This document shows, in pieces, positions 27,370-61,978 of a DNA stretch of 64,000 nucleotides; position 1 is the first letter of the stretch; each line of letters starts with the position of its first letter. A program made the translations under genes and the position numbers. Source of the stretch: Balanoglossus misakiensis (taxonomy: Eukaryota > Animalia > Hemichordata); NCBI GenBank assembly GCA_040954595.2, contig CM082592.2, positions 9,039,677 to 9,103,676 on the forward strand. Reading direction: 5' to 3'. The notes beneath the pieces were generated by a model that saw only the letters and a program-made list of their open reading frames with translations, was not told where the DNA came from and did not search any database.

Positions 27370-28672
27370 ATGCCCCGTGGAGGTCGGAGTAGAGGAAGAG
27401 CCGCTTCTCCCGTGAGGTAGGTCGATCACCGAGGACAGAAATGCACGACATGCCGCCGTGTTCACAGTTGAACCACGTTTTGCGTTCAGTCCAAGTGTAG
27501 TCCGTGTGCACGTATGTATGTATGTGTGTGTATGTAATGTGACCTGATCGCAATCATGGTTCGTTTCCCTGGGCACCCATAGTCCGTTTTGGTAGGCAGT
27601 CATTGCGACAAAATGTGTTAAAACGATAATGTCGCCAATCAATTTTGAAAGTTGCGTAAACTAAGAATAAAGGTCAGTCCCCACAAATGATGACGTAAGT
27701 TTGGGATGTTTGACATCATACGCCTGTACTCTACTGTAGTGAGTATGGTACTATCATACAACCCTTGTGAGTCAAAACTTTTTCTTGCACTCCCCAAGTT
27801 GCTTGATCAGGAGGTTGTTTAATGGGCCACTGACCTATGGTTTAACCTCCCTACTACCACAAATTCTTCTAGGAGTACCTGTAGATCTGCTTCTTTACAT
27901 TTAACTGTTAATGTTTTACCTGGCAGGTCATCACCTCCGAGGACAATGGCTTCTGCCCCTCCACCAGCTCCAGTACAACAGAGAGCACCAATGGCTCAAG
28001 CTCCTCAGCCCACGGCTGTTGGTCAGCCAAGACAGGGACCGGGTCTTCTAGGACAAATGGCCACCACGGCCGCAGGGGTTGCTGTTGGCTCGGCCATCGG
28101 CCATACTATCGGACATGCTATGACTGGTGGTGGTGGCGGCGGTGGTCAAAGCCAGCCTGATGTGACCTATCAGGAGCCACCCCCACAGCAGTACCAGCAA
28201 CCAATGCAACAGCAACAAACACAGCCGCAGGGATACTGTCAGTTTGAGATGAAGCAATTTCTGGAATGTGCCCAGACTACACAAGACATTTCATTGTGTG
28301 ATGGATTTAACCAAGCACTAAAAGATTGTAAATTCAGATATGGTAAGATATGGTTCAGAAAAGTTTGAATTATGGCTGCCCATTTAAATTGAATTCAATA
28401 TTAAAAAAATCAAATATTCACAGCTCTGGCATTGTTGTCAAATAAGTGAGGGTGTATGGACATCTCTGTTTCGCATACAGTACAAACAGATACTTTTCAC
28501 AAGTCAGACAGTACATGGATGCTGTGGGCTCTACAATACTGCACATTTAGCTAAAAAAATTGAACCTGTCCGTGAATGACCATGCACAGTCATGTGTACA
28601 GATACAGATGCTCATCATGTAAAAATAAATCTTGAATGGTTTGTCTTTCTTCTCTCAACAGGTATGCAGTGA
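27370..28672 (+). CDS. CHCHD2: CHCHD2/CHCHD10-family mitochondrial protein
   Basis: Exons 27370-27416 (MPRGGRSR..), 27927-28342 (GLLGQMATTAAGVAVGSAIGHTIG; twin CX9C CQFEMKQFLEC..CDGFNQALKDC) and 28662-28672 (GMQ*). Confidence 0.95.
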
Positions 28673-39370: not shown

Positions 39371-39443
39371 AGCCCCCTGTGAGATTCGAACTCACGACCC
39401 CTGGTTTACAAGACCAGTGCTCTAACCACTGAGCTAAGGAGGC
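39371..39443 (-). tRNA. tRNA-Thr(TGT)
   Basis: Reverse complement GCCTCCTTAGCTCAGTGGTTAGAGCACTGGTCTTGTAAACCAGGGGTCGTGAGTTCGAATCTCACAGGGGGCT: full cloverleaf, A and B boxes, anticodon loop CT-TGT-AA, T5 terminator at 39357-39361. Confidence 0.96.
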
Positions 39444-39904: not shown

Positions 39905-41924
39905 ATGGCGATCCGTGTGGTTCTCAGTCAACGGATACGGCGGGTGATAAAAACAGTCTTAACTGATGATACTGTTCCGGACAAGCTACGAGTGGAACTA
40001 GAAAAGTACTGTGATAGTGATGAGGATGAAGTCGAAAGTATTCCATTCGAAATTGTCCGGATGTGTCACCAGCAACTGACGAAAGGTAATGAATCATTCC
40101 ATTCCATTGATTGACTTTGTTTGGACTTCGAGTTTCTGCACTCACAGGGTTTCAGGTAAATGATTACTAGTAATCTATTTTTGTGTGCAAGGCTATATGC
40201 TGCTACCGACTGTTTTATTGGAGACGACTCCATGCTCCGATAACGAACGTGTGCATAAGCCTCCTGATTCCAACGTGGCTTGCGTACGCCAATGAACCCT
40301 GGCCCATATTACTGCTTCGGTGATCACTGCGTCTCACGTGACCAGACAGGCATCTTGTCAAGTGATCTTTTGGCAATTCCACTAAAATGGACTTCCTTTC
40401 TTTGTTTATTCCAGATGGAACATCATCACTGTATTTACATGAGCTCTTAGAGGGCAGTGAAGTTTACTATCCACCCTTGCCAAAACCGAGACGAGTAAGT
40501 CTTAGTGAAATCACACTTGTCATCACAAGCTAACCAGTGCTGGGCATACCATAGACAGTCTACTGTCTATGGGCATACCTAGAGACGCAGATGTAGAGTT
40601 GGCTCGATCTTTACTCTGATGGGTCTGTGCGGTTCTGTTCTCAGATGTCTGCCTCACTACATCTGAACCTGCACCATAGAAACTCTTTTTTTTTCAAAGG
40701 AAACTTCTCAGCCTATCAGAAAGCTGCTAACTCAGCAGTTTTAGGTACATATTCTGACACGTCATAGTGTCTTTTATAATGAGTGCTCTGATTGGCTTGA
40801 GAAAGCGCAAGATTTAAACAAGATTTTCTAAAAGCCAACTTGACCTCAGCCAATTTCTTTACCTGTTGTCTTGCAGAACCCTGAATTAGTAGCAAGATTA
40901 GAAAGAATAAAGACAGTACTAGAAAACAGACAGTATATGGAAATGACAAAAGGAATAAATACAAGGGTAAGGCTGGTAATTCTATATACATGGATCTTTG
41001 TTTATAGAACTATGTAAAAGATAGAACCTTACTAGAAAATGTCATGATACATACAAAGATGGCCTGGTGTAAAGTGCCCAAATAAGCAACAGCGCCCTCA
41101 ACTTTTAGACATTCAATTTCCTATATGAACAATCATACATATTGTATGCATTGAAGGTTTGAAGCATCATTTATTTGCCTTTTCCAACCAACCTGAATAA
41201 TCACAGTAATGTTGGTATTTAGCATTGTTGTCACATTATAATCTTTATTTTTCCCTTGACATATCACAGGCTCAATCAACATTTTCAGAGTTTGGCTCAG
41301 AAGGTGAGATTCTACTAAAAATAGAAACTTCTTATTCCCCTACAAGTTGAACCACAGTGTTCAGATCCAAGCATGAATTCTGGCACCATCTAAAAACAAA
41401 TAGAATATTTGATTGAACACAGTATCATAGATCATGCGACTGTGAGTTTGGACTGTTTTTCCTGGATAAATAACTTTTACCACATCATGCATTTCATGTA
41501 ATTCTTTTTTTTTTCTTGCTGGCTGACGACATCTTTACACTTTTTCAGTGAGATCTGTGAAGAAACATCTGATAACAGTGATGAATTCATTCTTGACGGT
41601 GATTGGAGCATTTGTGTTTGGCTACATGGCTGCAAGCTTCTCCCACCAGCCTTTACCTTTGGTGAGTCGAGTTATTCAATTTGTGGCCAAACTGGACTGG
41701 TATGCATACAAGATTAGAACTCCAACGTGTACAAACCAGTGAAAGAACAGAACTATACGTGATAAACTAACAAAACAATAAGTCAAAATATTCAAATGTT
41801 ACAGCTGATGTAACTTTACTGAGACACTCATTCTTTTTTCTTTCAGTGTGTCATGGTTGGGATTATCTTTTCAACAATTGTTGGCCTTGCAGATTTGTAC
41901 TTTCTTGCCAAGTCATCACTATGA
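39905..41924 (+). CDS. TMEM199: V-ATPase assembly factor TMEM199/VMA12 (~191 aa)
   Basis: Exons 39905-40085, 40415-40494, 40877-40966, 41270-41303, 41549-41661, 41847-41924; motifs IPF, YLHELLEGSEVY, RNPELVARLERIK..YMEMTK, two TM helices, ADLYF. Confidence 0.93.
40550..40571. mobile_element. 22-bp minimal TIR element with 7-bp TSD (P-like transposon remnant)
   Basis: GGCATAC|CATAGACAGT-CT-ACTGTCTATG|GGCATAC. Confidence 0.6.
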
Positions 41925-43604
41925 CGACACCATACCTGAACTTGCTGCGAGAAAGTTGACTTTATACCTTTGATTATATTTTCTGAAGAGACATAAAAGT
42001 TCCAGTTCTGTGGAAAGTTGGCATCTTTCATATCAATGTACATAGATGGTGGAGCTGAAAGTTGACACAAACAGTTCTGACATGAGACTGTAGTCAACTC
42101 ATGATTTGGAAGTGGGGACCACAGTAATCCTTTGAACTTTGCCTCTGAAAAAACTTCTGAATGATGTCTTGAGTCTTAAGGAACAAAGGATATTGTATTT
42201 GATTATTTTTGTGTGTGAGAAGTACTGTTTGTTATTTATTGCATCATGGACATGACATGTGAATACTTTGATGTACTGGCCCAAAACCACTATCCTGTCT
42301 CAGATGGGCTGAAAATGTGACCCACTTTCAGCACCTAGGGGGCTCTAAAAATGCTCCCTCACTTATAGCCAAACAGGAGCAATAATGGGATTCACTCAGG
42401 CAGCACATACCGTAAAGTGATGTAGATAATGGCCTGTCACAGGTCGAAACGCCCATCTGAATTCAGCGTTTGACAGCCAGGCCATAATGATCATAGACGC
42501 CATGAAAACGTTTACATTTACACATATGAGTGTATATAATCAAGTGATTGTGATTCATTAATCATTGAGATCTGTGGACAAATTTAGTCCGAAATAAAGT
42601 GAAATAAATAATACATTCCCTGTTAAAACTGTGGTTCGTGTACATATTCTTTCTCAATAGGAATTACTGTAATATGGTGAGGATCTTGGAACGGGTACGG
42701 TGGCCAGTGAAAGCGTGTTTGTGATATGTTAGAGATCAAAAATTTATAAGGAGTTGACAAAGAATTGTTTGCATGTTTCACACACCACTCAAACAACAGA
42801 ACTGGTTCGATAAACCAGCCGATCTGTATTTAAAACTACGAGAGAGAGAGAGCGAGAGACAGATCGCCACATCAGACATACGTCATCATCTAGTTTTCTC
42901 TGTCTGGACTGAGGGGGCGTTATACAGATCGACCAACATGGCGGCTTGCTCAAAATGGGAGTGAAGTATCACGACGTGAAGAATTGACACCGGTTTGACG
43001 CCTTCACGACAAGTACTTGATATTGTTATCATTCTATCTGGGTCAATAAGTGATCCAAGCCACTCAAGAGCTTCATAGATTCCAGGTATCAGTTGCAGTC
43101 GTCGAGTTGCGCGATAAAACAAGGGCGGGCTCTGCCGGACTGGAAAGACCGGTGTGTACGTGTGTGGAGTTTGTTCCCAGTGTTAGTGTGTAAAGCTGGA
43201 ACTGACAAAGGCTGCGTTGTTCACCCAGCTGACTTGGTGACCGTATTTTTCCACTGATTGTGGGAACGTGTCGGTGTAATTTGAAATTTCCAGGGCATTT
43301 CTAACACTTGTACGCTAACCTTTTCTCCGGAAGTTGCATAGTGTGTACAAACCGCAGTGGGCAGAGGGAACGAGTCTAAATTTGACGTGTGTGGATGTCA
43401 ACACGACGATAGCTCGGTCGAACGGAATGTAACTGGAGTAGGTGGTGAACATTTGCATCTGATAGGACCTACATACTCCCGATCATACCAGAGAAAAGAG
43501 TGACCACACGTGCGAATATCTCCAAAGGGAGGGTATCGACAGTTATTTGCTAATCAAACGCACGATCACAAAGCGCTGCATACATTGAGTTGTTTTGGGA
43601 AACC

Positions 43605-46600
43605 ATGCAAAGTGGCATGGAACTGCATATTCTGGATCACAAAGTTTACTTGATTAGCGTGGAGAAGGAGGCTATACCATTCGTTACACATTCACTGGTC
43701 AAGTTGGCTCTACTGTACAAGTACACAAAGTAAGTTTATTTCCCAGGTCTCACATGTGGCAGTTGTGAGACTGTCCCACCCCCTGGCCTGATTTCATCAT
43801 AAGTATTTCCCCAAACAAGATGGTGTTCTCCATTGGATTGTGCCATGGATATTAGCCTGCGTACATGTCTGTATGTTCCCACACAGACCTGTACGCAGGC
43901 TACATGGATATTAGCATTAACACTATCTTGTTCAGGGGAAATACTAAACTGAAATGGCGCCGTCTTGTCTTCTCCTCCGTGCAAAACAAGCCCTTCCTCT
44001 TGATTTATATTCTAGGGCACTCGGCATACACACCGGGTTCATGACCCTTATAAGTGTCAGTTACCTGACTTTTATCCTACCTGAAAACAGGCCATGTATA
44101 CAAAGTTGTGAACTTTGCAGGGGGTCAGTGAATAGCTGTGTGACTCCTGTAGCAAAGAAGATTACTAGGTTTGCAAAGTAAGGACAGGACCTTAAGCCAT
44201 AAATTTGCTGATTTTTCAGGGTATAATTGGCAGTGTCCCCATCTGTGTCAGGGTCAGTCAGAGTTCAGCTCATGTTTGGTGGGCCACTCTGCAATGATAT
44301 GCATTATGCCCAGAGCCCTGGCACTGGCCTGATGCAGATTTGCATCAGTAGTGTTTGACCAAAAGTCTCTTTGACCCTGTGCTTGAGAGAGGTCATGGTC
44401 ATGGGCCATTGCAATCATTGCAGCTGCACCTAGATTATATTCACCAGTAGAAACATTTTGAAATTTGGCGGTGGTGAAATATGATGCTAGTAGTAAATTC
44501 CTGAAGTTCTAAGATGGGTTAAAAGTTGGTATGCTACCTGCACAGTATATCGGCAACCATCGGCTACATTTGCCTGACTTATCATGTTTGCTCCCAATCC
44601 ATGCTTGACCAACTGACCTAATTTTCTGTCATGAAGGTCATCCTGAGGTCAAGGCTGCAAATTCATATACAAATTCATCTAATAAAACACATCTATCAGG
44701 AAAACTACCCGGGAGACACTGTTGGGGGAATGACTTTTTCTTAAATTCGGCAAGGACTGGACTGGTGTTTGCGTGATTGACAACCAACATTTACTACACT
44801 AGCTGTACACATTTACCTTTGTAAAACCCACCTTTACGTTAATGACATCACACAGATCAAGTCATCCCAGTCTAGATTTGATAACCTTGCACAGGTCAGA
44901 GTTTTTATATGGGACAGCTGGTTTGGGTTCCCATGATGCATCTGAACTCTCTCCAAAATGGATGATACATGTGTCTGTTCCAACAGGCCTGAAACAATGA
45001 AAGTATGGACATGTACATTTATTTTTATAACAGGAATTATTTTTTCTTTTGCAGGTGTCGATTTTTTAGCTACACAGAAACCTGCGATGATTTCTCTGTA
45101 ATTGTTGATGAAGGTGGATACCAAGGTAGGCATATGTAAATAGTGATATTACGGTGATTAGCTGTTACTAAATTTATGGTAATATATTCATACACACACC
45201 TGGAAATTTGGATAGTCATTGTTATTGCACCTGTGTCAGTTAGTATACATGTATTAAAATTTGTCATTTTTGGTGAGTCAAGATTGCTGTCTTTTGACAT
45301 TATTATGGATATTTTTTCCATAATAGTGTTGAACGGCACTGGTGTAGATTCCTGCGTATGTATATTATAAATATTCCATATGTGATCGCGATCGTAGAAC
45401 ACCCTATCAATAAGATGATTGATGAACATTTACTTGTCCAGTGTTAACTCATTCATCACACATTTCATATTGGCTGTTTAAAGTATTGCTGATATTGATA
45501 AGTGCTCTATATTGACATTCATGAATAAAATGAGCCTGTGGCCACAAAAGTATTACATATGGGGTTCGTCAGTTTGTATAATCAATAGCCTCTTAATTGA
45601 TCAATTTCTGAACCGTGTGAATATTACTAAATGTGCATGTAGTGTTTAGCAATATTGACATTTTTCATGCGGCGCCATAGTGACATTGAGAGAAATGGTG
45701 ATTAGTTTTGTCTGCAATAATCATGTTACTCTCGACTGACTGGAAAGTGGAGAGGGGATCTGGGCACAAAAGGTGAAAACAGTGCGAGAAAAATGGCCAT
45801 AGAAATACATGTATTCCTAAGAAACATGCTCACCCACCCACATGTGTTTATTTTTACCACTATCATGTGAAATATTGGCAGTGTGACTATTTCAAAAGCC
45901 GTCAGCATAAACATCTTATTGCTTTTATATCTGTTTAAGGCTGGCAAGAGCTCTGTAACCATGGCAACTTAGTACCAGACTGAACTCTGAAAAATCATGA
46001 TATCAATCACAGGATAGATATTCTTGATAAGGTAGCTCTCGTTTAAAAAAACGATTTCAGTGAAAATTTATTATTCTGTCTACATTGGCAATAGAGTGCT
46101 GAGAGAAATTAGGGCCTACAGCAGAAGCTCAAGTGGAGTTGTTTCTGAAACACGAACAAGCACACCAGCTTGACAGACGACATTCTAGTTATTTCAGATA
46201 TGGTCTTGAAGGTGGATGGCATTTTGATGTGTTTGATCAGGGCCAGTATTATTTGTAAGTAGGTTTTTCTAATCATCAAGAGTCTTTATGTCCAGGTCAT
46301 GTGTAGTATAATATCAACATACAATGTATAGGTTCATGTACTGGTAATTTTGTCTGCTGGTACTTAGTGACTGATACACAGGTAGTATAGAAGGGTCCGG
46401 AAATTACATCCTGACACAGTACTCAACATTATATAGTGTTTGTGTGTTTAATACCAGTATCAACAGTGGGTTCATCCCTCTGACAAATAACTAATTAGCA
46501 GTTACTCTGGATGGTTGACGTCAGTCTGTCCATAACGGTGGAATTCATAGTATGCTGGAATTTATCAGTCGGTACACATTGGTGTTTGCGGTCAGATGAT

Positions 46601-49600
46601 CAGAATAGTCGGTGTGTGGAGATGAGTCACTGACTATCCCAGGTTTACAGAACGACTACTTGTAGCAAAGGGCAGTTACACACCAGAACTTTATCTCCGA
46701 GCACTGTTTGCAGTTCTCGGTGATTAGAAATGTACTTGTACTGGTACGTGTGGTTCTACATGTAGTGCGTCTATAACCTTGTCAATTTTATTTTCACAGA
46801 CAGCTCTGCTTTGTAGAGGCTTATTAATTAATATATGAGCAAATTGAAATCACTCATTTGGGTATTGGCAGCTCATCAAACCTTTCAAATACAAAATGTG
46901 CTAATTGACAAGTCAGGTTAGCTGTCAGGTGTCTGCCTGTAGGGCAAAATACTAATAGTTTATTTATAATGCAGGTAGCTGAATAGGGACGTAGTCTGGG
47001 TATGTGCAACATAGATGTTCTGGGAAACAGGGTTAATACAGATTAAGGTTGTATGGATTAAATTCCCAGAAGGGAGAGAGCTGCATCATTATGCAGGTGT
47101 CGGTGCCAATTTTCATATTGCGTGTTTTTGGGGTCAGCCGGGGTAGAATACATTCTTGATAAATGATTGACTGTACTCTGTGTGTTTGACAGATAGATTT
47201 CGGGGACCAGGGTGGTTTTGATTGCTTCTGAACACAGTACAAATGCGCGCTAAACACTGCCTGGTATTTTTGACGATTTGTATATATGTCAGCTGCTGTG
47301 CCACTTTCCAGAGGGGATGTTCAACTGCATGTTGCTATAGCAACAAAGCTAACCAATGGCAGGTTTGATCATCCTCTTGCCACATGCTTATTTGCATAAT
47401 TATGAGACAGGACGTAATCCGCAATGAAGGGATTTTTTTGCCTCCAATGCAGTGAAGTTGCTATTCTGATTTTAAGAATCGCATTGTCTGTCCTGTTTAA
47501 TAGTAGCCTGTGTGAAAATAATTGCTTCAGTTATCAGCTTCAGAATGAAAATCATGACTTAACACTAGTGTTGAAGATTATTACTAGTCTGAAAGGATTT
47601 ATAAACAGTTGAATGATGCCAGCTGACATTTGCCCTATGTTACATTATGTACATGGATCATTTTTTTGTGCTGTGAATTTACATATTATTTGTTGAGCAG
47701 AATTAAATCTGTCATTGATAAGCAGTTTATATATGGGCAGTATCACCCCATAGTAACAGCAGTTGATTTTAATACCAGGCCTTGACAGAATCGTAGATTG
47801 CACGGGCTGTTATTAATGTAATTTAAGTTCGTTGTACTCGAAGTGATATCTCTGAGTTCTCTTGTCTGCCAGCATACATTGATGAAATCATTACAGCAGA
47901 GCCAGCCGTCTCTCATTAATGTCTCGTCTGAAGATAAAAATCTTCACTGCACGATGAAAATCCATTTGGCTGAAAGAATTGGTTCATTAACCGGCAAATT
48001 GTGATGTCGGATTTATTCGCGTGATGTCTGAACGTTGTCCAACTGTCTGAGAAGTTGACAGGGAAATGTAACCGTTGGAGGATGCTGTGATGATAATACT
48101 GGTGTGCGCCTTTCTATCCAAGACTTGGGTGCATCTCACCAATTCGAAAACTGTTTTCTTTTCAGCCACTGTGCTCATTATTAATTATTGAGTGAGCACA
48201 GTGAGTACAGCCAATCGTGGAAAGGGGATAAAACATCATCAACCCAATCCAGCCAATGAAACCACTTCATCTGACTCCATCCAGCCAATCAGATCACTTC
48301 TTCTAAACAACACTGACCTATCGCGACAGAAGTTACTCACATTTTCCATGTCAATTTTTTTTTACTAATTTCCCCCCAGAAATTCCCAAACACGAGAAGG
48401 TGAAGGTTCAGCCGGATAAATGGCGTGTCCTGAATGTAGCAGTTGGTGCGTACGCAACCAATAAGGTGTCCGGTCTTACCAAGATAGCCAAGTCAGTCAT
48501 CCTCCCATTGGCCGATTACCATGTCTCTGTGTTTTGCATGTCTACTTACCAAACAGACTTTATCTTGGTGAGTGGAATACGCAGCATCACACTTAAAGCT
48601 TGTCGAAATCAAATCATGTCTGGACCTTTTATTTGTGAATTCTTACATGATTTTGAAGACTAGTTTGTATAATATATAAAGAGTGTTACAAGATTTCAGT
48701 TTACAAATTTGGCTCCCAATTGGCACTTATACATTCTCTAATTTTACTGTTGTGACTGATTACATTATTTCTTTCTCAGATAAAGGAAAATGATTTAGAG
48801 AAAGCAATAGAATGTCTGTCGGCAAACTTTAAAGTCTTCCAGGAGAAAGATGGGGAAACGTTACCTGTACCGATCAACCAACCAGTCGATGAAGACAAGC
48901 TGCTGGATCCAGGTGAGTGAAGAATGTAACAGTGTCGCTGATTGGGCACGTCCTTGACGAGACAGCACTTGTGATTGGTTTATAATGAGACAACACTTGT
49001 GATTGGTTATTAAGGGAGTGGTCATAAAATGTGCTGTATTGGTTAGTGAAAGCTTGAATGATTACAAACTCATGTTTTGAAAAGACCTACAAGATACCCG
49101 CCCTGGTAAATTTTTTTTCAAATCTTTCCCCCCCCGTTTCATTTCACCCTGACAGGACTTGAAAAGAACAGACACTACAATGTAGTTACAAATGGGATCA
49201 GAGGTACAGTGAGTCTGGCTTCCCAGCCAATTTCTAACATTAGCGTTCAACTATAAAAAGAAAGGGTTGAAAGGTGTATATTGATTTATTACTATGTGAT
49301 GGACAAGACTACGTCTACGGTTTGGCAAATAGATTGGGTTCTTATCTGTCCAGCCTACCAACCAATTCCAAAGCCTTGGCTTATCTGTCAGAAATGTGTA
49401 AGAGAGATCGTAAGAGATTTATTTTCCAATTTTAGTATAAAAACCAAGCTGTAAGATACAATTTTTTTTGTTCTGTTATATATCTCTTGTGTAATATGGA
49501 GTATAATATATATTTATATACGTCTGACTTTCCTATCTGTATTAATCTGGCTGTTTATTTACATATGTATTGTTTGTACACGTATAATCATATAAATATT

Positions 49601-52526
49601 CTAATTAATATGTGACGATAGAGTTACCAAATGTTCCTTGGTAAATGTGAGGTATGATTATGAATGAATAAGGTGTCTTGGATGTGAATGTACGTGTGCA
49701 GATGATTGTGGTCTCTGCATTACTTGTTTTTTTTTCTTTTTATCCTTTTTAGTCTTTTTTTTATCGTAGTAAATAATTCACTGCAAAGCACACCATAACC
49801 TTTCATAATGACATACAGTCAATTTAAAAAAGCCTATACAGACTACTGAGTTGTAGCTTTTATGGTCTGCTACAAATTCAAGCGTTCGGGTTCACTTTCT
49901 CCATTGAAATTATCTGGGCGACTGCAACCGTGAATCTATTTCCATCAGTGATGGATGAAATTATCTGCTTAATGGCACCTCATAATAAATGGAGTCTAAT
50001 GGATTTATCACCCGGACTGGCTTGCACATGTTTCATGAACTTGAGATCTTCCGTAGTAATGAGATACGTGTCCCAGTTACCTTATAGCGTGGAACGTCCA
50101 TTCAAGTAACCATGACGCTAATTTCATGCTCTCGCTGACAGTTGTAATGCTCATGAATTACAAGAAAAATTTTTTTCACCAAATTTGTGAGTTTACTCCT
50201 GGAACAGAAAAGTCAGTGAGAGCAAGAGGATGACAGCCTGGTGTCAAGTCTGTTCAGCAAACTTCATAGTCATCTCAAAACGTTTTGATCTTTTTTGACT
50301 TGATTTCAGGAACTCCACGGCCGATCGTACACCCGTTCATCGTCCCACTGAATCGCTTCTCTATTCGGAGCCTCCACCCAGAAACACTGCCCAACGTCGC
50401 CTGTGCATTGCTGGAAATTATGTTCTATGCTGAAAGGTAATGAGATTTGCATTTGGGGTCCCTGTACAATTTTGTCCAGAATTAGAAAGTGGCATGAATC
50501 CAAGGCGCATTGTACATGCAGCTTAAAGAACGGCTTCTCTGATTGGCTCCTCACTTGTCCAGCTTTGTAACAGATTCTGTAATCCTTTTTTTCAGTCTGA
50601 TATCTCCCCTCCAGGACGGCCACGACAGATTTTTTTCATACTCGGTTGTCGACGGTGAAATCTCACTGGTTATGGATGCTGATGCTCTCTCAAAGTAAGA
50701 ATAAATTCCCAAAGAATTCATCAAAATGCTTTATAAAATTTACTCAAGGGCATATATTGTCAACACTATTCTTGTTAACCTGTGCTCATTTCTTGACGTA
50801 TCCATGACAGATTTCCCACCAATTCCCTGTTCGGAAGCACAGCTGGAGAGTGTTGGCGAATGATCAGGATAGGTGGTGCCCCACTGGGGTTTGGTAAGTC
50901 AAAAAAAATCTGTCTGTTCTCTAGTAACAGTTTTATACAGAGACTGACATCATGGAAACAGTACAAAGAAAAGTTCTGCAATGTGACTACAGTTACTCCT
51001 ATGTAATGAATGTGTCACATTTAGACTCATGATAACATTCCTGCAGTATTAGTTTATACTTCTGATTCCATGAGATGTTGTCAAATGCCTGAGCTTGTTC
51101 CCAGCAACAAATTAAGTTAATACTGACGTTGGGTGACATCAACTGACTGGTAAAAGTTATCACAAGACACTGTGTTGTCCAATCATACAAACTCCAAAGT
51201 TTCTTCAGCTGCTCAGCAGGCTTGGTTCAATCCAAGTGCAAGGCTGATCCAAAAGTGTGACTGTATTTTCTCCATTCAGAGGAAAGCGGAATTGTTGCAC
51301 AATATACGAATGCCATCTCAGAAGCCAACTGCTCGGCATATCACATCAGTACCTTTACCAAAGGATACACACTGGTAAGCGAAGTCGCGTAGAAGAAACA
51401 TCCCCTCTAACTTCATGCTTCTCCAACCCCTATCACGAATGGTATCTTCCAATGCCTTCCACTGGCTGAAGCACACTGGAAGCATACCACTCGCTCAAAT
51501 AGGGAACATAACATGTAATACAGAAGATACATTTTTATTCTTCTTTTTTTGTTGTTGCCTGTTTCTTTGTTCAGATGAATGTGGCATTGCAGCTCAGATC
51601 TCCCAGCCGCTCGCTGATGCCGACATTTCAACTTATTACATCAGTACATTTCTCACAGATCATACTTTGGTAAGATTCTGCCTTTTTCAATGTGTTTTCG
51701 AGCTTGTAGCTGAATTGTATTATGCCTTCTGTCTGTGTGACTGTTGTGTTACCCATGATTCCTCAGAGTTTCTTGAGTAGCATGTCATGTGACTTAATGT
51801 GACCAATCAACTGTCAATAAGATGAATTATATGCAAAAACAGGAAATATATACAGCAGTTGGACCCAAAACATCCCTGACATAAAATGCGAGAATATGAG
51901 TTATCTACCAAAGTTGTGTAAACATCTGTTAGAAAAATAATGATGTAGAAGCATGGCTACGATCATCTGTATAAAACTCACCATCACCATATGAAATTTC
52001 CTTCTTCACTATCCATTAAAGCTACATCGATTATTTCATGCCATTCCCTGTCATAGACCAGCATCATAAAGAATTTGTTATTGTGGTTTTATGCATTGTT
52101 CTGTCACTGATGTTATGCCCCAGTATTTTTTCTTGATGTGATTTTGTTTTCTGTTTCAAAGTTTCAGTATGACCCAAGATTACTTGTATAGTGTATGACC
52201 TTCCATTAGTTAAAAGTGGCAAAAATCTGCCATCTTGAAATTGTGTCGACAACAGATAACTGTGGAGAAACAGTTTACAGTTTTTTCACCACTTGTCACT
52301 GACTGCACGGTCTCCTCCTTCTCTTCGCCCTCGTTAGGTTCCTGAGGAAGATGCTGACCTTGTCATCCAAATCCTGAAAAGCCGTCAACAGCTTCAGTCA
52401 ATCAGCGAGGAGAATGATGACGGCCAGCAGCACGTCAACACGATCAACTCTGTGCATTTGACCGATGGCGGTGACGAAAAGCTCCCAATCCGACACCAAA
52501 ATGACAAAGACACAGCATACTATTAA
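43605..52526 (+). CDS. CASTOR: CASTOR1/2 (GATS-like) cytosolic arginine sensor for mTORC1
   Basis: Exons 43605(or 43617)-43729 (MELHILDH..), 45055-45125, 48380-48567 (GLTKIAKSVILPLADYHVSVFCMSTYQTDFIL), 48780-48912, probable 49156-49203, 50310-50436, 50596-50694, 50811-50893 (WRMIRIGGAPLGF), [51280-51374 or 51575-51669], 52338-52526; all phase-compatible. Confidence 0.95.
51280..51374 (+). CDS. CASTOR alternative ACT4 exon A (divergent duplicate)
   Basis: ttttctccattcag|95 nt|gtaagc; phase 1 to 0; translates EESGIVAQYTNAISEANCSAYHISTFTKGYTL. Confidence 0.8.
51575..51669 (+). CDS. CASTOR canonical ACT4 exon B
   Basis: tttctttgttcag|95 nt|gtaaga; translates DECGIAAQISQPLADADISTYYISTFLTDHTL. 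Confidence 0.93.
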
Positions 52527-55234
52527 GATTTACAGTACTACAATAAAGTAACCGCTTTTTTTTCTGTCGAAATTTTGTGTTTTAGAAAATTTGTACAGAG
52601 ATTTCTTTTCCTTTTTTTTCCGGCAAGCTGTATTTTCAGGAAAATGTATGACAATCTTTTCTTATACATTAATTAAGAAGCTTGGTAACTGAAAATGGTT
52701 GTTTGCTGCTTAGGTGACCCAAAGAAAACCTTTGAGTTTGTTGACCTTTAGCTTATGACATGACCTTTCACCTTGTCAAAGGTTACTACTGTTCATGTCA
52801 GTTTATCGGGTGCTCGACAACAAAATGAAGTACAGTATTTTGATTATTGTAGTCTCTTATGTTTTGGTCATCAAGTTTGGTTGAAAAAAAAACACCTTTC
52901 CACAGAGAAAATTTCATAAACTCACAGCCAGTAAGATGCTCTTTGTGCTAGTCAAAAACCTCACACTATCAACCTCTGTTTTGTGGCTAGGAGAAGTACT
53001 AAAAATTACTGCATGTCAAGTGTTCAAAAGAAACATACTCCATGGAGCAGCTTGTATGGTAATCAAGGTAATCAATGATATTTACTTGTATATGTATGTT
53101 TAATTACGTTGTATCTTTCAATTGAAGAAAATGACTTTTCCACGTCTGCAAAAACACAAAAAAATTGTTTTACGAAGGAAGCAAATAATTTTTTGAAAAA
53201 TTCTGAAATAGATGGGTCAGACGTCCTGTCAACTCAGGAGATGTACATTATTATATGGCATAGATGATGAGATACATTAACCCCACCCCACCCCACCTCC
53301 TTGGTTTCTAGTGGTATTGCCCAGTTTGACCACACACATCCAGTGGACTATCCCACAAAGCTTGAAAATAGTAGGTGACAGGGTTAAGACGAAACAGCAC
53401 AGAGACGGGTTGGCAGTGTCTGACCCATCAACACTGCCGTACAAAATTCAGTGTGCCTTTTCAGTTTGTCAACATGTTGCCTTTTTTGTCTGAAATCGAA
53501 CAAAATATTACGTTCATCATATGTTTATACTGCATTGATGTGACGAAAAGATACTCTCATGTTGTACAGCTGAGAACAAATTAGTTCTTGAGTCTGATAA
53601 TAAATTTTCAGTCTGTTGAATTTTAAGTGTTTTCTTCCATGGGCATTAAGACCTACACTAAGTGGTGACAAGATTTTGCATAGAAGCATAGTCTTTTTTT
53701 AGGTGTACTTCAAGATTGGCACCCCAAAGCGATAAGTTCTTTAAGCATTCCATGTTGGGGTGCCCAAGCAAATTAAGTTTTCAATTATTCTGTGGTTTAG
53801 AGTATAACATTTCACCTCACAATCTTTTTTTCATTGACTGGGTTTTGGTATATGTACCATTAAGAATTCTACTTAAAAAACAGTTTATGCTATATTGAAG
53901 TGTGTATAAATCCAGACATGAATCTGGGAAATGCTATCAATGTTGACTGTAGAGTTTCAGTTCCTTAAAGGCTGTGTCCACTGTAGCATGAGGAGTCAAC
54001 AGACCCCTGTAGCTATAATTCTGATGCTGCTTGATTTCAGTTATTTGTTCTTCTCACGAAACATCCACCTAATAATGACATTTCCAAGACAACCAAAGAC
54101 GAAGTGTATGTCTGTTTTGTCAGAGATAAAATGCTGGTAGTCTGATATATCCGTTGTAAAATTGCTGAAAATGCTGATAATACAGCGCGTGTGATTGGTT
54201 AGTCATATCATCGTAGCACGCGTAGTTTGTTAGCTTCATCAATCCTGGCAGAGTTTACAAATCTGTTTGTTGAACATATCAGTTGACAAGAATTTTATAG
54301 ATACCCACCTTGCACAAATATTGTCATTCCACCTTAATTTTGTTACATGTTTTGTTCTCAAATTTCCTGAACTTTATTCTATTTTCTGAATTCAGATCAA
54401 GATTGCTACAGTTTATCACTCACTGAAAAGTATAGATCAAACTTTATGACAGAGAGACACTGGACAGTATATTTTTAGAGATGTGATAAAACAGAAATGT
54501 GGTTTAGAAGAATGTGATTATGTATAAAGTTTGTATTGTATCTCCAGATGTGTAGTGTATGACTCAAGCCTATCGGCAAGTTGGCCAGTAGTTTAGACTT
54601 AGTAGCAGATGCATGCAACTTCTTGTAAATATGTTGGCTGTAGCACTTTTCTCCCCTCAAATACTGTTTTTTTTCATCATTACTTACCTATCGCAAATCA
54701 AATGTTCACAATAATTGTGTAAATATTAGAGAGACTAATCAATTCGTCTGGATTTGTTGCCAATGTTTTTCAAAATGGCTGCTTAATGATTCCAAGGGGA
54801 GTTTCTATGGAAACTAGTTGACCCTAATGGCCTTTTCCTTGAATTGAATCTTGTCCGGAGGAGATACCATCACAAAGAGTGGCTCCCATCACGTTTTGAA
54901 ACAAATTAAACTGCCAGGATTATCTTCCAGAAAAGCTCAGTTGAATTCGTGAACACAAATCTAGCAATGGTAGCTGATGTGAACACTACAATGTCCTTTC
55001 CTGAAGTTTGATAATAGACAAACTACCTTGTAATGCAGTGCTGCACATCAGAATAATTCACTCTTCAGTTGACGAGATGTGAACGCAGCAAGTATAAATC
55101 TATATTTGATGGTGAATAATAATAATGCAGTGTTCTGTTTTTTCTCCTTCGATGAATACTCTGATGTACCTTTTCTGTAAATTGCCATTGAGTCAATAAA
55201 TACTTGGAAATGCAGAGGATGTGTCTGTCGTGTG

Positions 55235-56365: not shown

Positions 56366-59300
56366 TCATGGCGAGTGGAGATGGTTGGATAGCGTCTCTG
56401 CCTATAACACAAAAGAGAAGTCAGTCATTAAGACATGTATGGGCAAACCCAGAGCCTTCCTGAGTTAGCGTATTCTGCACCTCACCGTGTGTACAATGCG
56501 CTCATTTACACTATAATCTAATCCATGCAAGAAAAGCCTAAATTCTCACCTTCACTTCATTGCCATCTCCATTACAGCGTCTTTGGTATCTTTTCTGCCT
56601 GTCACGGACTGTCCCAGACTCCCAGTCACGTTTCACTTGATCGGACCTCTTCTGTTTCAGACCCTCTCCTTCTGTGTACGAGCCAGAGGGTGTCGAGTCA
56701 CACTGCAAATTGGCCGGTCTCTCCGAATGGGAAGTTGCAGCATAGCAGTGATCGCCTGCGCTTGGGTCATCTGGGTCTCTGCAGCTCACGATGTCATCCT
56801 CTGCGTCCTGACTGCTCGTGCTGCAAGTGTCGACTGCGGAACTTGACTCGCTGTCCGCCAAGCCTTCGTCCTGTGTAAAAGAACTGGCTGCTATGGGAGA
56901 TGAGGCTGTGCTGATTTTCCTGGCGCAAGTGTTTTGTTTTGTCTGGGAATTCCTCTGCGTAGAGTTCGCAACATCTTTGCTGATTTTCTCATCAGTACAT
57001 TTACTCTCCTTCTTCGCTGGGAACTGTTTGACCTTATCGGGCGACTTGCAGTAATTGTGGTCGGTATCAGCAAAGTTGTAGTAAATTCTGTCCGCACTTT
57101 TCTGAGTAACAGCACAGTTCCTTCCCACATCCAAACCTATTTGTGCGGGACTTGTAGACAGGCTGACTTTACGTTTGGGGGTATTATTCCAAGTGTTTGT
57201 AACGTCTTGGGGCCGGGACTTGGGCGTTGCCGTCCCTTTGCTTTTACCCGGCGTCATCCTGGACGCACTCGGAGAACCCAAGAGACGCTCAGGTCCCAAT
57301 TTTTCCAGCTTTACGATGACGTTTGGATCAACTTCCGTGCCGTCCACAATCATCTTCGGACTCAACCCTAAAATGCCTACGGGCGACAGCACTGTTGCAG
57401 ACGACGGCACATTTGGAACGCTGCTGTCTTTACGGCGTCGCTGGTTGGAGCTACACGGTTTCTTTTTTGCCTGCGGCACTCCGTGACTGAACCCAGACAT
57501 GGAAGAGAGTCTCTTCCGTCGGAAAGTCGCAAGCGGATCCCCGACCTCGTGAGGCTGTGAGTCCCTCGCAATTCCTGTGTCCTTCTCCGGCCTTGCAGTG
57601 CCGGCGTCACCGTAAACGTTCTCTTGCTCGTCGTGTACATGCAACTCTTGCCTCGATTTCACCGGCGTTGCGACAGTGCTGAGTTGCTTGTCCAGTTCGG
57701 ACAACTTGTCCTCCAAGGTGACGGCCACAGCTTTCTTGGTCTTCTGGTTCCTGGTCGGCTTGAACTTCTTCACCCCCAGCTGCTCGAGCTTCTTTGCTTT
57801 CGTCGCTTTGAGCTTGGTCACCACGAAGGGATCTTTAAACGTCATCATCCTTGACATCTTCCTCAAACCTGTGAGGTTTGTCTTGCCGTTTGTGTCTGGT
57901 CTGGGACTTTCAAATATAGTCTCCAAATTCCTCTTTTTGGTTTTCTTCGGCCCCCTTGTAGTGTACAGTTTCTCCACTGCTATGTCCGACTTGGATTTCT
58001 TCTCTTGCTTTGCAGTTTTCCTGGACTGATCGCCGGATTTTTGTGTGTTATCGTTTACTTCTCTGTCAGTGACTCTGCTTTTCCGCCTGTTTGATTTGCG
58101 GGTGTCTTGCTGTTGTTGAAGATCAGCCTCATCTGTGTTCTCAGAGATCGTTTCTGCCGACTGCGGTAAAGCTTCTGCAGGTGACTCGGTACAGGGAATG
58201 TCCTCTGGGGCACAGTCGTTGACGTCCGTTGATTCTGTCATTTCATGTCCCTCATCAGTCTGCACAGAAGAGTTGCCTACAGAAGAAGTCTCACTTTCAT
58301 TGTCACTGGAACCGCAATCAGTTTCTGTCAAATTGTCTGCGTTTCCACCTGGAATTTCAACACCGCAGTTTGGATCTTTGTCTGCGCTTTCTGAATCATT
58401 CTGACTGAGAGACTTTTTCCCGCTCTGTGCATTCTCCTCACGGGACACCGTTCCGACATTTTGGTTCATTGTGGTACAGCAGTAGATGGCGCTTTGAGCT
58501 TCCAGAAAACTCCGCCGCCGTCTACGTTGTTTTCCGCCTCCTTCCTGGGTGGTACACATAAAATGACTGGGGCTTAACAAGGAGTCACTGTACAAAGCCT
58601 CCAACGCTCTGAGGGAAACCCTACGCTGACTGCGTTTCGGCTTGGATGTTTCTACCTCAGGATTCGCTTCACTGTCTGCTTTATCGTCATCAAACATGGT
58701 GGCACAAGAACCGACATCATAAGGAAATATCTCCACAATGTCGCCTTTTTCTGCACAATCGGTTTCCGGCAAGAAGCCATCACAAACTATCTCGTCATCG
58801 GGTGTGATGGTTATGGATAACCTCTTCTTCAGTCGGACATTCCTCCTTGGCTCAGGCCTGATGGATTTATCTTCGTTTGAGGAATCGGTGTGCGCCTTGC
58901 CACATATATCTTCACCTGTCGTTCCAATGGCAGCTGCATCTACGTCTGTTGATTCATGGCTGGCTGCATCCGTTTCTTTGCAACTCTCGGTTTCTGTATC
59001 CACATCTCTGACGACGCAGTGATCAAGGATAGTTTGCTTGCCTTCATCATGAGATCCGACATCGCTTTCCTCATTCAGACCTGAAACAGCGGCACTCGGA
59101 AACTTCCTGGATCTACCCCTTCTCAGCTGCACGAAAACTCCCGACTCTTGCTTTGTGGCTCGGACAGTGACTTTCTGACCCTGAGACTTTACAGCGTCTG
59201 CTCTTGAAGCACCCAGTGGTTGGGTCTCACTCGCTTCCTGATCTCTAGCATCCCTGCTCTTGCCCAGTAATGCATCACCTACAGCTGCCTCCTCCTCACA

Positions 59301-61978
59301 AGCACCGTCGCCTTGGTCACCATCTCTGATGTCTGTTGCCTGGAGATCTGCTGGGAGACCACAATCCCCTTCCGACTTGTTTGCAGGGTCACTGATGGTC
59401 TCTGGAGACTCTTTGGCAATGTTGTTCCACTTTGACGATGAAACAGCAGCGCCATTTTTCCTCCTGCAATTTCTTTTACCTTTTACATTTACTTGGACCT
59501 TCTTGCCAGACTTCTGATTAAGGTTATCACTTCCAAGTTTTCCCTCTGTAATGCTTCCTGCAGCAGAATCCTCCACATCATCACTGCTTTTCACATTATC
59601 ACCCTTATCCACCTCCTCCTCCAAGCTGTTCTCCACAGCACTGACATCCATCTCTCTCTGATCTCCAGCGGCGTCCGCGCCGACACTATAGTTTGGACTG
59701 TCTCCCACCTTGACGGATGTGTTCTCCTGCAAGTTCTTGAGAGAAGTGTCAATCACATCCAAGCTGCTTTCGTTACTCATGTCGCTCAGATCGGGGGTTC
59801 TGGGCGTCAGGCACTTGTACAGAGGCACGTACATGCCACTTGCTCTCCTCTTCTGCTTCTTCTTACCGGAGTAAGCGTAACTGGCCCCAAACACAGAATC
59901 CCTGTCGTCAAAACTCCTGCTGGTGTTATCATCTGTCACGGAGGAGTCCACGCTCACTGAACCGGACCCACCTGCCATTTCGGGAGTTGTAGACGAGCAT
60001 CTCCTCGATGTCTCGGCAGGATGATCAGACACGCCCAGGTCTGCATCATCCGTAGTTTTTTCTGCCTTGACTTCTATTTTAGGTGTTCTGTGTCTGTCTG
60101 AAGCCACATCGCTGCACATGTTGGTACTTCCACAACTGTCCCTTTCACTTTGGCTCCCTTCATCTAAACCGCACTCGTTTTCCTCAACCGTCTTCGCTTT
60201 CTTCCAGGGGCTGCAGGCAGTATGGCAGGCTGAGGTTTCCTCTGTCTCTGAATTGCCCCTCTTCCCTGGAGATACAGCTTTTGGAGGCGCTGTTATCCCA
60301 TGCGGGGAATTGGTATCCGTAGTAGAGTCTGGAGTCAGTGCCTGTGTCTCAGCACCAACCGAGTAATCATTAGCTGTTCCAGGGGTGCCGCTGTTTCTGC
60401 TTGGGCCTGGTTCAGCATTTCCTTGCTGTGAGCATGATCCTTCAAGGGTTGGAGAGTCACCACTGATCGGTGGAAGATCTTCTGGGGTGTCTCCTCCCTG
60501 AAGATTCTGCGTTGGAGGCATTTTACGGGGAGTTACGACAGCGGCAGCTGCATCATCATCCATTTGACCTCTGCCCTCAGCCTCAGTTTTAACAGGAGAT
60601 TGGGAAGGAGAACTGCTGGAATTCTCCGGTGGCGATTGCGGATCGCTTCCTGGACTCATGATAGCCGAAGACATATTCGTCAGCCAGTCCGCGTACATAC
60701 TTTGAAACTGCACGTTTTTCCCCCCGCGCCTGGTCACAGACACGGGCGTGGTGTACCTGGACGCGTTACCGCCGAGACTCCTCCGCGAGGATCGGCGTGA
60801 CGTCGACTGGTCTCTTGGGCTTTCGTCTGAGAGCGAGTCTTGCTTCTGATCAGAATCCTCTGTTTGGCTGACTTTCGGGTATTTCCTAGGCCGGCCCCTG
60901 GGTCTCTTGACTGTTGATTGGAGAGGACTACTAGGAGTGTTACTTGTTGTATCAGTTGAACTGTTCTCTGGCTTGCCTTGTCCTGCTTTGTTGGATGTCT
61001 CCATTTGCCCAGCTCTGCCCACCTTTGGATTCTTTTCGCTCGTGTCTTTAACATCCATTCTTTTGGGCTTATCTACGACACCTCTGGGATACCTCTCTCT
61101 TGTGATCCTTTGATCTGCAGCTTTGCTTCTGGTCGTTATTTGACGTCTGTTTTGAGCCGATCTGTGCTTGGAATTTGGATCTCGGACACTCTTCAGAAAA
61201 GTGATTTCATGATCCAGGGGTACAATGCAACAGTTTTTAAGCAACATTGGTGGAGATAAATTGCCAGACGTCGGTGTTTCAACCTGGGAGGGAAAAAAAG
61301 ATTGAAAACAAATGCTCAAGTCAAAGACATCATCGCAAAATATCCTGTAGGGTTCTCCAAGAAGATTAAAGGGGTAACCCTCTCTATTTCAATCAGCAGT
61401 TTCACTTTTGAAAGACAGAAAAGGGACTGGGCAAACAATAAAAGAAAAACATTCTACGAGTATCTTACCTTTGTTCTATCTGTTTCAGGTGAAGACACCG
61501 GTGTGATGTACGGAATAGTGTGTACCATGGCAACAGTTGTAAGTTTTCCATCTTCTGAATCTATTAGAAATTACAAGGGGACATTCAGTAAGGTCATATG
61601 CCACTGAGCAGTTTGGACCAGCTATCAGACAGCGCAGATGGCGAAATATTACTTTAGACAGTAGAAACAGTAGAAATTCACAAATTTTGACATGTGGCTG
61701 TATATGCAGTGTCAGTTACAGCAGTTACGAATAAGGATCACCTCACCTTTGTTTCCCATTACCGAATTATGTCCCGAGAGAGCATTGCCATTTCTCGAAA
61801 CCTCATCACTCAGCTCATCGTTTTCACCTTCTCCATCATCCATGAAGCTGTAGGCATGAATGTCGTCCATGTGGCCAATCTTTGCAGCTTTTCGGGGACT
61901 TTTGCTCAGGAAGTCTTGCAGCTCCTGCGTGGGCTTGGGCTTACGCTGACTTCTCCGTGGCTCTTGCGTGGCCAGCAT
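56366..61978 (-). CDS. Tantalus-domain PRR14/PRR14L-like disordered nuclear protein (~1697 aa)
   Basis: Exons 61978-61747, 61560-61469, 61283-56550 (4.7 kb) and 56401-56366 in frame. Tantalus-like segment VEKLYTTRGPKKTKKRNLETIFESP..GLRKMSRMMTF; AT-hook KRPRGRPRK; S/T/D/E-rich low complexity. Confidence 0.75.

Follow-up and report, generated by a model that had tools for sequence, protein, structure and literature searches.

A tandem pair of alternative arginine-pocket exons, with and without Asp304, in the CASTOR gene of an acorn worm

A CASTOR gene with two copies of one pocket exon

We analysed a stretch of 64,000 nucleotides (nt) from the acorn worm Balanoglossus misakiensis (GenBank assembly GCA_040954595.2, contig CM082592.2, positions 9,039,677 to 9,103,676 of the forward strand), here called the window and numbered from its first letter. 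It carries an enteropneust gene for CASTOR, the family of the human arginine sensor CASTOR1, which in mammals reports arginine levels to the mTORC1 growth pathway, with a coding span of 43617-52526 on the forward (+) strand. Two tandem copies of the exon for residues 276-307 (human numbering) lie within this gene and are likely spliced one at a time; the upstream copy, exon A, has glycine in place of the canonical Asp304 of the downstream copy, exon B. An earlier note, made from the DNA alone, had placed exon A at 51280-51374 and exon B at 51575-51669 (both +), and these coordinates were borne out: each exon is 95 nt long, they are separated by a 200-nt intron (51375-51574, +), and each has the pyrimidine tract, CAG, GTAAG and stop-free phase 1 to phase 0 frame that had been read in it. 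The recorded identity of 14/32 residues without indels was reproduced (56/95 nt). Single inclusion alone keeps the reading frame, A-only and B-only transcripts both encoding 365 amino acids (381 with the cassette exon E4b); double inclusion runs into a stop 40 nt into the last exon and double skipping into one 8 nt in. As had been argued, junction-dependent nonsense-mediated decay is unlikely to police the choice, because no junction follows these stops, assuming that exon 9, with AATAAA at 52542, is the last.

Synonymous sites of A and B are close to saturation (proportion of differences, pS, 0.72, against pN of 0.31 at non-synonymous sites), which points to an old duplication with both frames preserved. 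No third copy of the exon was found within the window by tblastn, a search with exon A and its in-frame flanks returned nothing (three candidates), and one P. flava (Ptychodera flava) CASTOR gene turned up in protein searches. That the exon pair is not due to chance is confirmed, at the level of sequence, by the retained length, frame and both splice sites of A and by its conservation in three further genera.

In the gene model, coding exon 1 (43617-43729, start codon at 43617) is followed by exons 2 (45055-45125), 3 (48380-48567), 4 (48780-48912), 5 (50310-50436), 6 (50596-50694) and 7 (50811-50893), all +. Exon 3, in the ACT2 domain, supplies the shared half of the pocket (S111, V112, F113) together with the MIOS-binding triad Y118/Q119/D121; exon 7 ends in phase 1 and encodes, for both isoforms, the first half of the lid over the pocket (L273, G274, F275). 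The last coding exon, to the stop codon, spans 52338-52526 (+). An optional in-frame cassette exon of 16 amino acids, E4b (49156-49203, +), lies in the ACT2-ACT3 linker and is a second alternative event in this gene: P. flava isoforms X1 and X2 have a matching 17-residue insert that X3 and X4 are without.

The arginine pocket and the GATOR2 face

The nearest proteins are the acorn-worm CASTORs of Ptychodera flava, Glandiceps talaboti and Saccoglossus kowalevskii. The window B model is identical to P. flava X3 at 337/365 residues, and the corresponding A isoforms agree at 329/365. The P. flava isoforms served as stand-ins for those of the window in domain and fold searches. In both its A and B isoforms, Castor1_N, CASTOR1_ACT-like and two ACT_7 stretches scored above the Pfam cut-off, and the predicted A-isoform model adopts the four-ACT CASTOR fold, with arginine-bound CASTOR1 as its top Foldseek matches (E 5.9e-38). 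Model confidence was similar for the two isoforms (predicted local distance difference test 77.9 for A vs 77.4 for B), the alignment behind the A-isoform model consisting mostly of Asp304 sequences.

The human numbering used in the earlier note agrees with PDB 5i2c for residues 277-307. In human CASTOR1 the pocket lid ends within this segment, which also contains helix alpha7 and the loop 300-304 (PMC5020642, PMC5187391). In the contacts described in PMC5020642, Asp304 is the sole side chain of the segment that binds the guanidinium group; G274, T300, F301 and F303 act through the main chain, whose atoms receive five guanidinium hydrogen bonds. D304A and D304L are reported to abolish arginine binding (PMC5187391, PMC5020642), V281A and F303A to weaken it (PMC5020642), and ligand binding to shift alpha7, reorient Tyr297 and move the release loop (PMC12507694).

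Exon A does lose Asp304, as had been noted, and with it the one side chain of the exon that grips guanidinium. T300 and F301 had also been listed as retained contacts; both residues are kept in A, but they act through the main chain, so their retention says little. A further carries D276E, P287A and Y297H. Isoform B retains S111, G274, E277, G279, I280, T300, F301 and D304, and differs from human CASTOR1 at Ala281, Thr303 and Phe113. Position 304 is aspartate in 115 of the 120 homologues listed, glycine in four (Glandiceps and three corals) and a gap in one; all four A exons have Gly304 (4/4), so isoform A lacks the Asp304 salt bridge of a CASTOR1-type arginine sensor. By analogy with human D304A and D304L, A probably has no useful arginine binding, and B is likely to give an arginine sensor, perhaps a weaker one than human CASTOR1.

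The face towards GATOR2 appears to be shared. The MIOS triad Y118/Q119/D121 is present in the window, invariant in 149/149 proteins and encoded by the shared exon 3. Cryo-electron microscopy (cryo-EM) papers name Y118, Q119, D121, Y236 and S258 as MIOS/GATOR2 contacts (PMC12477443, PMC12507694). All five positions lie outside the duplicated exon. The earlier note had also counted D292 as a GATOR2 contact, which was not found in the CASTOR1 papers searched for D292; the claim may stem from Saxton 2016. Isoform A is inferred to retain MIOS binding through the shared triad.

Conservation of exon A in acorn worms

Among the P. flava isoforms, X2 and X4 carry the A exon and X1 and X3 the B exon, so that X1-X4 are exactly the four combinations of A or B with and without E4b; no double-inclusion or skipping form occurs among the P. 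flava proteins. For Saccoglossus, one model of each type is on record. The single Glandiceps model is of the A type, and the choice of the less canonical exon for a lone model suggests transcript support. Across the A exons of four species, 17/32 residues are invariant, including E277, G279, I280 and T302-K303-G304-Y305, and S278, E290, T302, K303, G304 and Y305 are fixed differences from B. The A-type exons form one clade (support 98/86), which places the duplication before the Saccoglossus-Ptychodera split, dated at about 373 million years ago in PMC4729200; judged by these sequences, the exon pair is conserved over more than 370 million years.

A dead duplicate, the outcome that the earlier note had named as fatal to its claim, is ruled out by this conservation, A-type isoforms being on record for Ptychodera, Glandiceps and Saccoglossus. 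The constraint on the window copy itself is residual: its changes avoid conserved sites (P=0.043). Both exons are very probably used in Balanoglossus misakiensis.

A matching exon pair in cnidarians

For each of Oculina, Porites and Nematostella, RefSeq contains two isoforms of equal length, one with Gly304 and one with Asp304, whose differences (17, 18 and 21 residues) are confined to segment 276-307. Both models of the jellyfish Rhopilema carry Gly304. Metagenome contigs yielded 15 coral-like loci. Seven of these show both 95-nt exons in genomic DNA, in phase 1 to 0 and with the Gly exon first (L007/L008 and L009/L010 are two pairs with identical introns), and one ends after the Gly exon. 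The other seven are spliced (fully in five cases, partly in two), each with one exon (four Asp, three Gly) and none with both (0/7); as assemblies drop rare variants, this exclusivity holds for the main forms. The claim of a real tandem pair, probably used singly, is supported by database isoforms in three acorn-worm genera and by spliced contigs in corals. Of the two anthozoan copies, the Gly exon is better conserved: Oculina and Nematostella share 25/32 residues in it vs 17/32 in the Asp exon (counted by eye).

Several other records deserve mention. Nematostella X4 (P0309) appears to skip both exons, with a frameshift, and X3 (P0308) stops just past the Gly exon. P0167 is a cnidarian-like CASTOR with Glu at 304. 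Amphioxus P0012 and Lingula P0010 have Pro in place of S111, the residue that contacts the amino group in the human protein, and their ligands may differ too; the C-terminal half occurs twice in the Lingula model, which could be an artefact of assembly or annotation. P0234 and P0199 are distant lid-bearing ACT domains with Gly304, the segment end of P0234 resembling exon A, which could be a further case of convergence.

Whether the acorn-worm and cnidarian pairs share one origin was addressed with 31 columns, leaving out column 304. Acorn-worm A exons are no closer to coral Gly exons (13.2/31) than to coral Asp exons (12.7/31), and none of five groupings was rejected (approximately unbiased test, p 0.055-0.32; LG+G4 without mixture). 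The sequence relation is mirrored, the canonical-looking copy being the Gly exon in corals and the Asp exon B in acorn worms. Echinoderm, amphioxus, Lingula, lamprey and hagfish records (records, not genomes) contain Asp304 only and no Gly304. Tandem exon duplication is described as commonly convergent in orthologous genes (PMC9741552). The Gly-first order common to corals and the acorn worm fits a single origin, but has even odds by chance. On these sequences we lean towards convergence, since the divergence is mirrored and records of intermediate lineages show no second form.

RNA structure between the alternative exons

A long RNA stem would shorten the intervening intron and leave donor and branch point too close together, and may prevent double inclusion in this way. 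In corals the intervening intron is 303-364 nt long and its two ends pair in a long conserved stem at all five loci (L005:212-575, L007:400-758, L009:1290-1592, L011:108-437 and L015:1059-1418), with 0/300 shuffles as good at each; 94% of the cells of the stem are paired. The stem leaves 29-52 nt from the donor to candidate branch points (distances here are plain counts), at or below the steric limit of about 50 nt given in PMC7969005. The A-B intron of the window is also strongly structured (z -3.94, 0/200 shuffles; z -3.3 in a rerun; 1/33 control tiles lower), a result to be taken as a lead, as the test was made after the coral stem had been seen. Its main feature is a predicted long hairpin at 51428-51504 (+; intron nt 54-130; 27 pairs with p>0.5; -28.6 kcal/mol), and a weaker predicted hairpin covers the donor of exon A. 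Two observations count against a steric lock of this kind: covariation in the coral stem is weak, with three pairs and 26/500 shuffles as high, and the main hairpin of the window leaves 60-86 nt to candidate branch points, above the limit. We give such a lock an even chance in corals and find it doubtful in the acorn worm.

Other arrangements were considered. Coral-type pairing of the intron ends was rejected for the window, where 93/300 shuffles were as good. A distant branch point of the OGDH type was rejected, because the strict motif present at intron nt 36 is followed by AGs at 96, 107, 127, 148 and 151; this arrangement is absent from the coral introns as well. Docking-site/selector pairings of the Dscam type were sought, and 0/10 block pairs clearly beat shuffles (best 1/12). 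Pairing of about 51502-51525 with 51731-51754, which would loop out exon B, was not significant (z -0.59), and a perfect 13-nt inverted repeat at 50929/51966, matched in 14/300 shuffles, was rejected because 10/44 real tiles contain one. Elsewhere in the gene, a very stable hairpin lies at the start of intron 1 (43730-43929, z -5.9).

Neighbouring features of the window

Immediately upstream of the CASTOR gene lies a small spliced gene (39905-42000, +), which we take to resemble TMEM199/VMA12, and before it a threonine transfer RNA gene, tRNA-Thr(TGT), at 39371-39443 (-). An intronless frame with a CHCH domain at 27823-28365 (+) is presumably CHCHD2/10-like. Downstream, a 1616-codon open frame with a Tantalus domain (56541-61388, -) is assumed to be PRR14-like.

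What isoform A may sense

We favour the reading that exon A, through Gly304, would make a sensor that opens in response to another amino acid, probably a non-basic one, or to a related metabolite, and whose predicted GATOR2 output matches that of B. The exon swap would thus be a swap of input, comprising the ligand contacts and the helix to the release loop, with a largely shared output face; the dimer surface is encoded by shared exons, so that mixed A/B dimers may form. As a whole, this reading (single-exon use, B an arginine sensor, A a sensor of another ligand) has a probability of roughly 45%. If arginine binding is lost, a new ligand for A is a little better than even compared with none, on account of the retained residues that bind the amino-acid backbone, Gly279 among them, the invariant 302-305 segment, the frequency of Gly304 and the anthozoan and jellyfish pattern. 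All Gly304 animal exons listed retain Gly279, which binds the carboxylate and is matched by Lys in the ACT2 twin, and among 106 lid-bearing domains position 304 is Asp in 94, Gly in six and another residue in six, so that glycine is the commonest substitute. It is tempting to speculate that the larger, uncharged pocket end would suit glutamine, citrulline or aromatic residues, or that the fixed Lys303 could favour acidic ligands in acorn worms; the acorn-worm and coral Gly forms may not share a ligand.

Several points weigh against this reading. The loss of arginine binding in A is extrapolated from D304A/L and not from D304G itself, and Ala281 and Thr303 may weaken arginine binding by B itself. 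Asp to Gly is a single transition whose recurrence could reflect mutational ease. Acorn worms have Glu in place of Y236, a peripheral MIOS contact in the human protein. The isoforms recorded for these animals are computed RefSeq models. Exon A also evolves faster than B: in the same three species 19/32 residues are invariant in A vs 29/32 in B, and the window and P. flava differ at nine of 32 sites in A and at one in B. In the window copy P287A, F294S and Y297H hit sites otherwise invariant in A exons; Y297 moves in the release mechanism.

The strongest alternative, which we nevertheless think unlikely, is that A is a ligandless, arginine-blind brake that stays on GATOR2 and dampens mTORC1, the A/B ratio setting a tissue threshold. 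It is the simpler reading, since D304A is used as the standard constitutive GATOR2 binder (PMC5187391, PMC10938194); in this mutant arginine binding is gone and GATOR2 pull-down is increased (PMC5187391), the MIOS triad sits in a shared exon of the acorn-worm gene, and the calcium-insensitive OGDH exon 4a offers a precedent (PMC7969005). The invariant 277-280 and 302-305 segments of the four A exons nevertheless exceed the obvious need of an empty pocket, and the Gly exon is better conserved in anthozoans and the sole form in the two Rhopilema models, where a lone constitutive inhibitor would be odd.

Less probable still is that A senses arginine at a much higher concentration, bound by the main-chain carbonyls of 274, 300, 301 and 303, with the pair widening the dynamic range. 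The five main-chain guanidinium hydrogen bonds would permit this, and CASTOR2, which showed no binding in early isothermal titration calorimetry (ITC), has an arginine-bound structure and a low-affinity description, with range widening now proposed for the CASTOR1/CASTOR2 pair. CASTOR2, however, keeps Asp304, whereas A loses the charge next to an invariant Lys, and D304A and D304L have no measurable binding.

Decay or rare use of exon A in Balanoglossus misakiensis, with function in its relatives, is improbable: the excess of differences from P. flava (9/32 vs 1/32), the changes P287A and Y297H at sites invariant in 147/149 proteins (two gaps) and the longest branch among A exons (0.33) favour it, but length, frame and splice sites are intact and 0/9 changes fall within 277-284, 298-300 or 302-307, conserved sites being avoided to the degree given above. 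We set aside as more improbable again an effect on output, in which the 291-297 changes alter or abolish GATOR2 binding and make A a dominant-negative dimer partner or give it a role outside mTORC1, since 292-295 vary among single-exon homologues too and the contacts named in the cryo-EM papers lie in shared exons, even though internal symmetry (ACT2 111-113 ~ ACT4 294-296) suggests that the exon forms one side of the cleft between ACT2 and ACT4 in which MIOS Arg137 sits, and A exons have Asn/Gly292, with Phe294 in 3/4.

Returning to the sensor of another ligand, a broader form of it, which we hold more tentatively, is that Gly304 CASTOR is an undescribed mTORC1 amino-acid sensor with a non-arginine ligand, the main form in cnidarians and an alternative in acorn worms. 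A nutrient input to GATOR2 would then be switched by swapping one 95-nt exon, and the switch would either predate the cnidarian-bilaterian split or have arisen twice, each time with the same exon, exon order, substitution and lock by an RNA stem.

The pair bears on how mTORC1 gains nutrient inputs. By the route known so far, as described for fly Unmet (PMC10245982), a new protein is recruited to GATOR2; the exon swap, if true, would be a second, in which the GATOR2 face is kept and the pocket exchanged by splicing. Invertebrate proteins annotated 'arginine sensor' may then not sense arginine, and in corals and anemones the pair may connect the supply of nitrogen with the control of host growth. 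The ligand is directly testable, as natural isoform pairs from two phyla differ by 17-21 residues and human CASTORs have been produced in E. coli and measured by ITC.

Comparison with known systems

The isoform pair is apparently undescribed, as the earlier note had surmised, and is already in RefSeq as unnamed X variants. Literature searches returned no alternative CASTOR pocket exons or Gly304 CASTORs; they covered papers outside subscription and without supplements, whose alignments may show invertebrate Gly304 sequences, and the few papers matching all search terms were judged mostly from listings.

Human CASTOR1 (PDB 5i2c, 5gv2) shares with the acorn-worm protein the four-ACT fold, three Pfam domains, the lid, S111/V112 and the MIOS triad, and with isoform B also Asp304. 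It differs in that the acorn-worm half-pocket lies on a duplicated exon, one copy of which has Gly304, and in Y236, which is Glu in the acorn worm. The vertebrate proteins sampled have Asp304 versions only. The suggestion of a splicing analogue of the CASTOR1/CASTOR2 split proved loose. CASTOR2 keeps Asp304 and has an arginine crystal structure (PDB 9kpg), and a 2026 review describes its arginine binding as weaker, not absent (PMC13738686). Both systems have two pocket versions with differing predicted arginine responses and possible mixed dimers, but the vertebrate pair arose by gene duplication and CASTOR2 differs mainly outside the pocket, whereas the acorn worm has one gene, an exon swap and the key charge removed.

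Among tandem exon swaps, OGDH exons 4a/4b are ancient duplicates whose upstream copy is likewise without acidic ligand residues and gives a signal-insensitive isoform, as is predicted here (PMC7969005). Their exclusion is attributed to a short donor-to-branch distance, the distant branch points being followed by a long zone free of AGs (PMC7969005); in the acorn worm five AGs follow the branch motif, and an intron-collapsing stem is the candidate instead. PKM, PFKP, KHK and ACTN1 likewise tune ligand responses by swapping homologous exons (PMC9741552), in a survey whose main text contains 0 occurrences of CASTOR. Such substitutions usually keep the ligand residues (80.6% in PMC9741552), whereas acorn-worm A changes the one charged contact, in an mTORC1 sensor. 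The hexacoral CASTOR pair has the same segment, 95-nt exons in phase 1 to 0, the Gly exon upstream, single inclusion (likely in the acorn worm as well) and a structured intervening intron.

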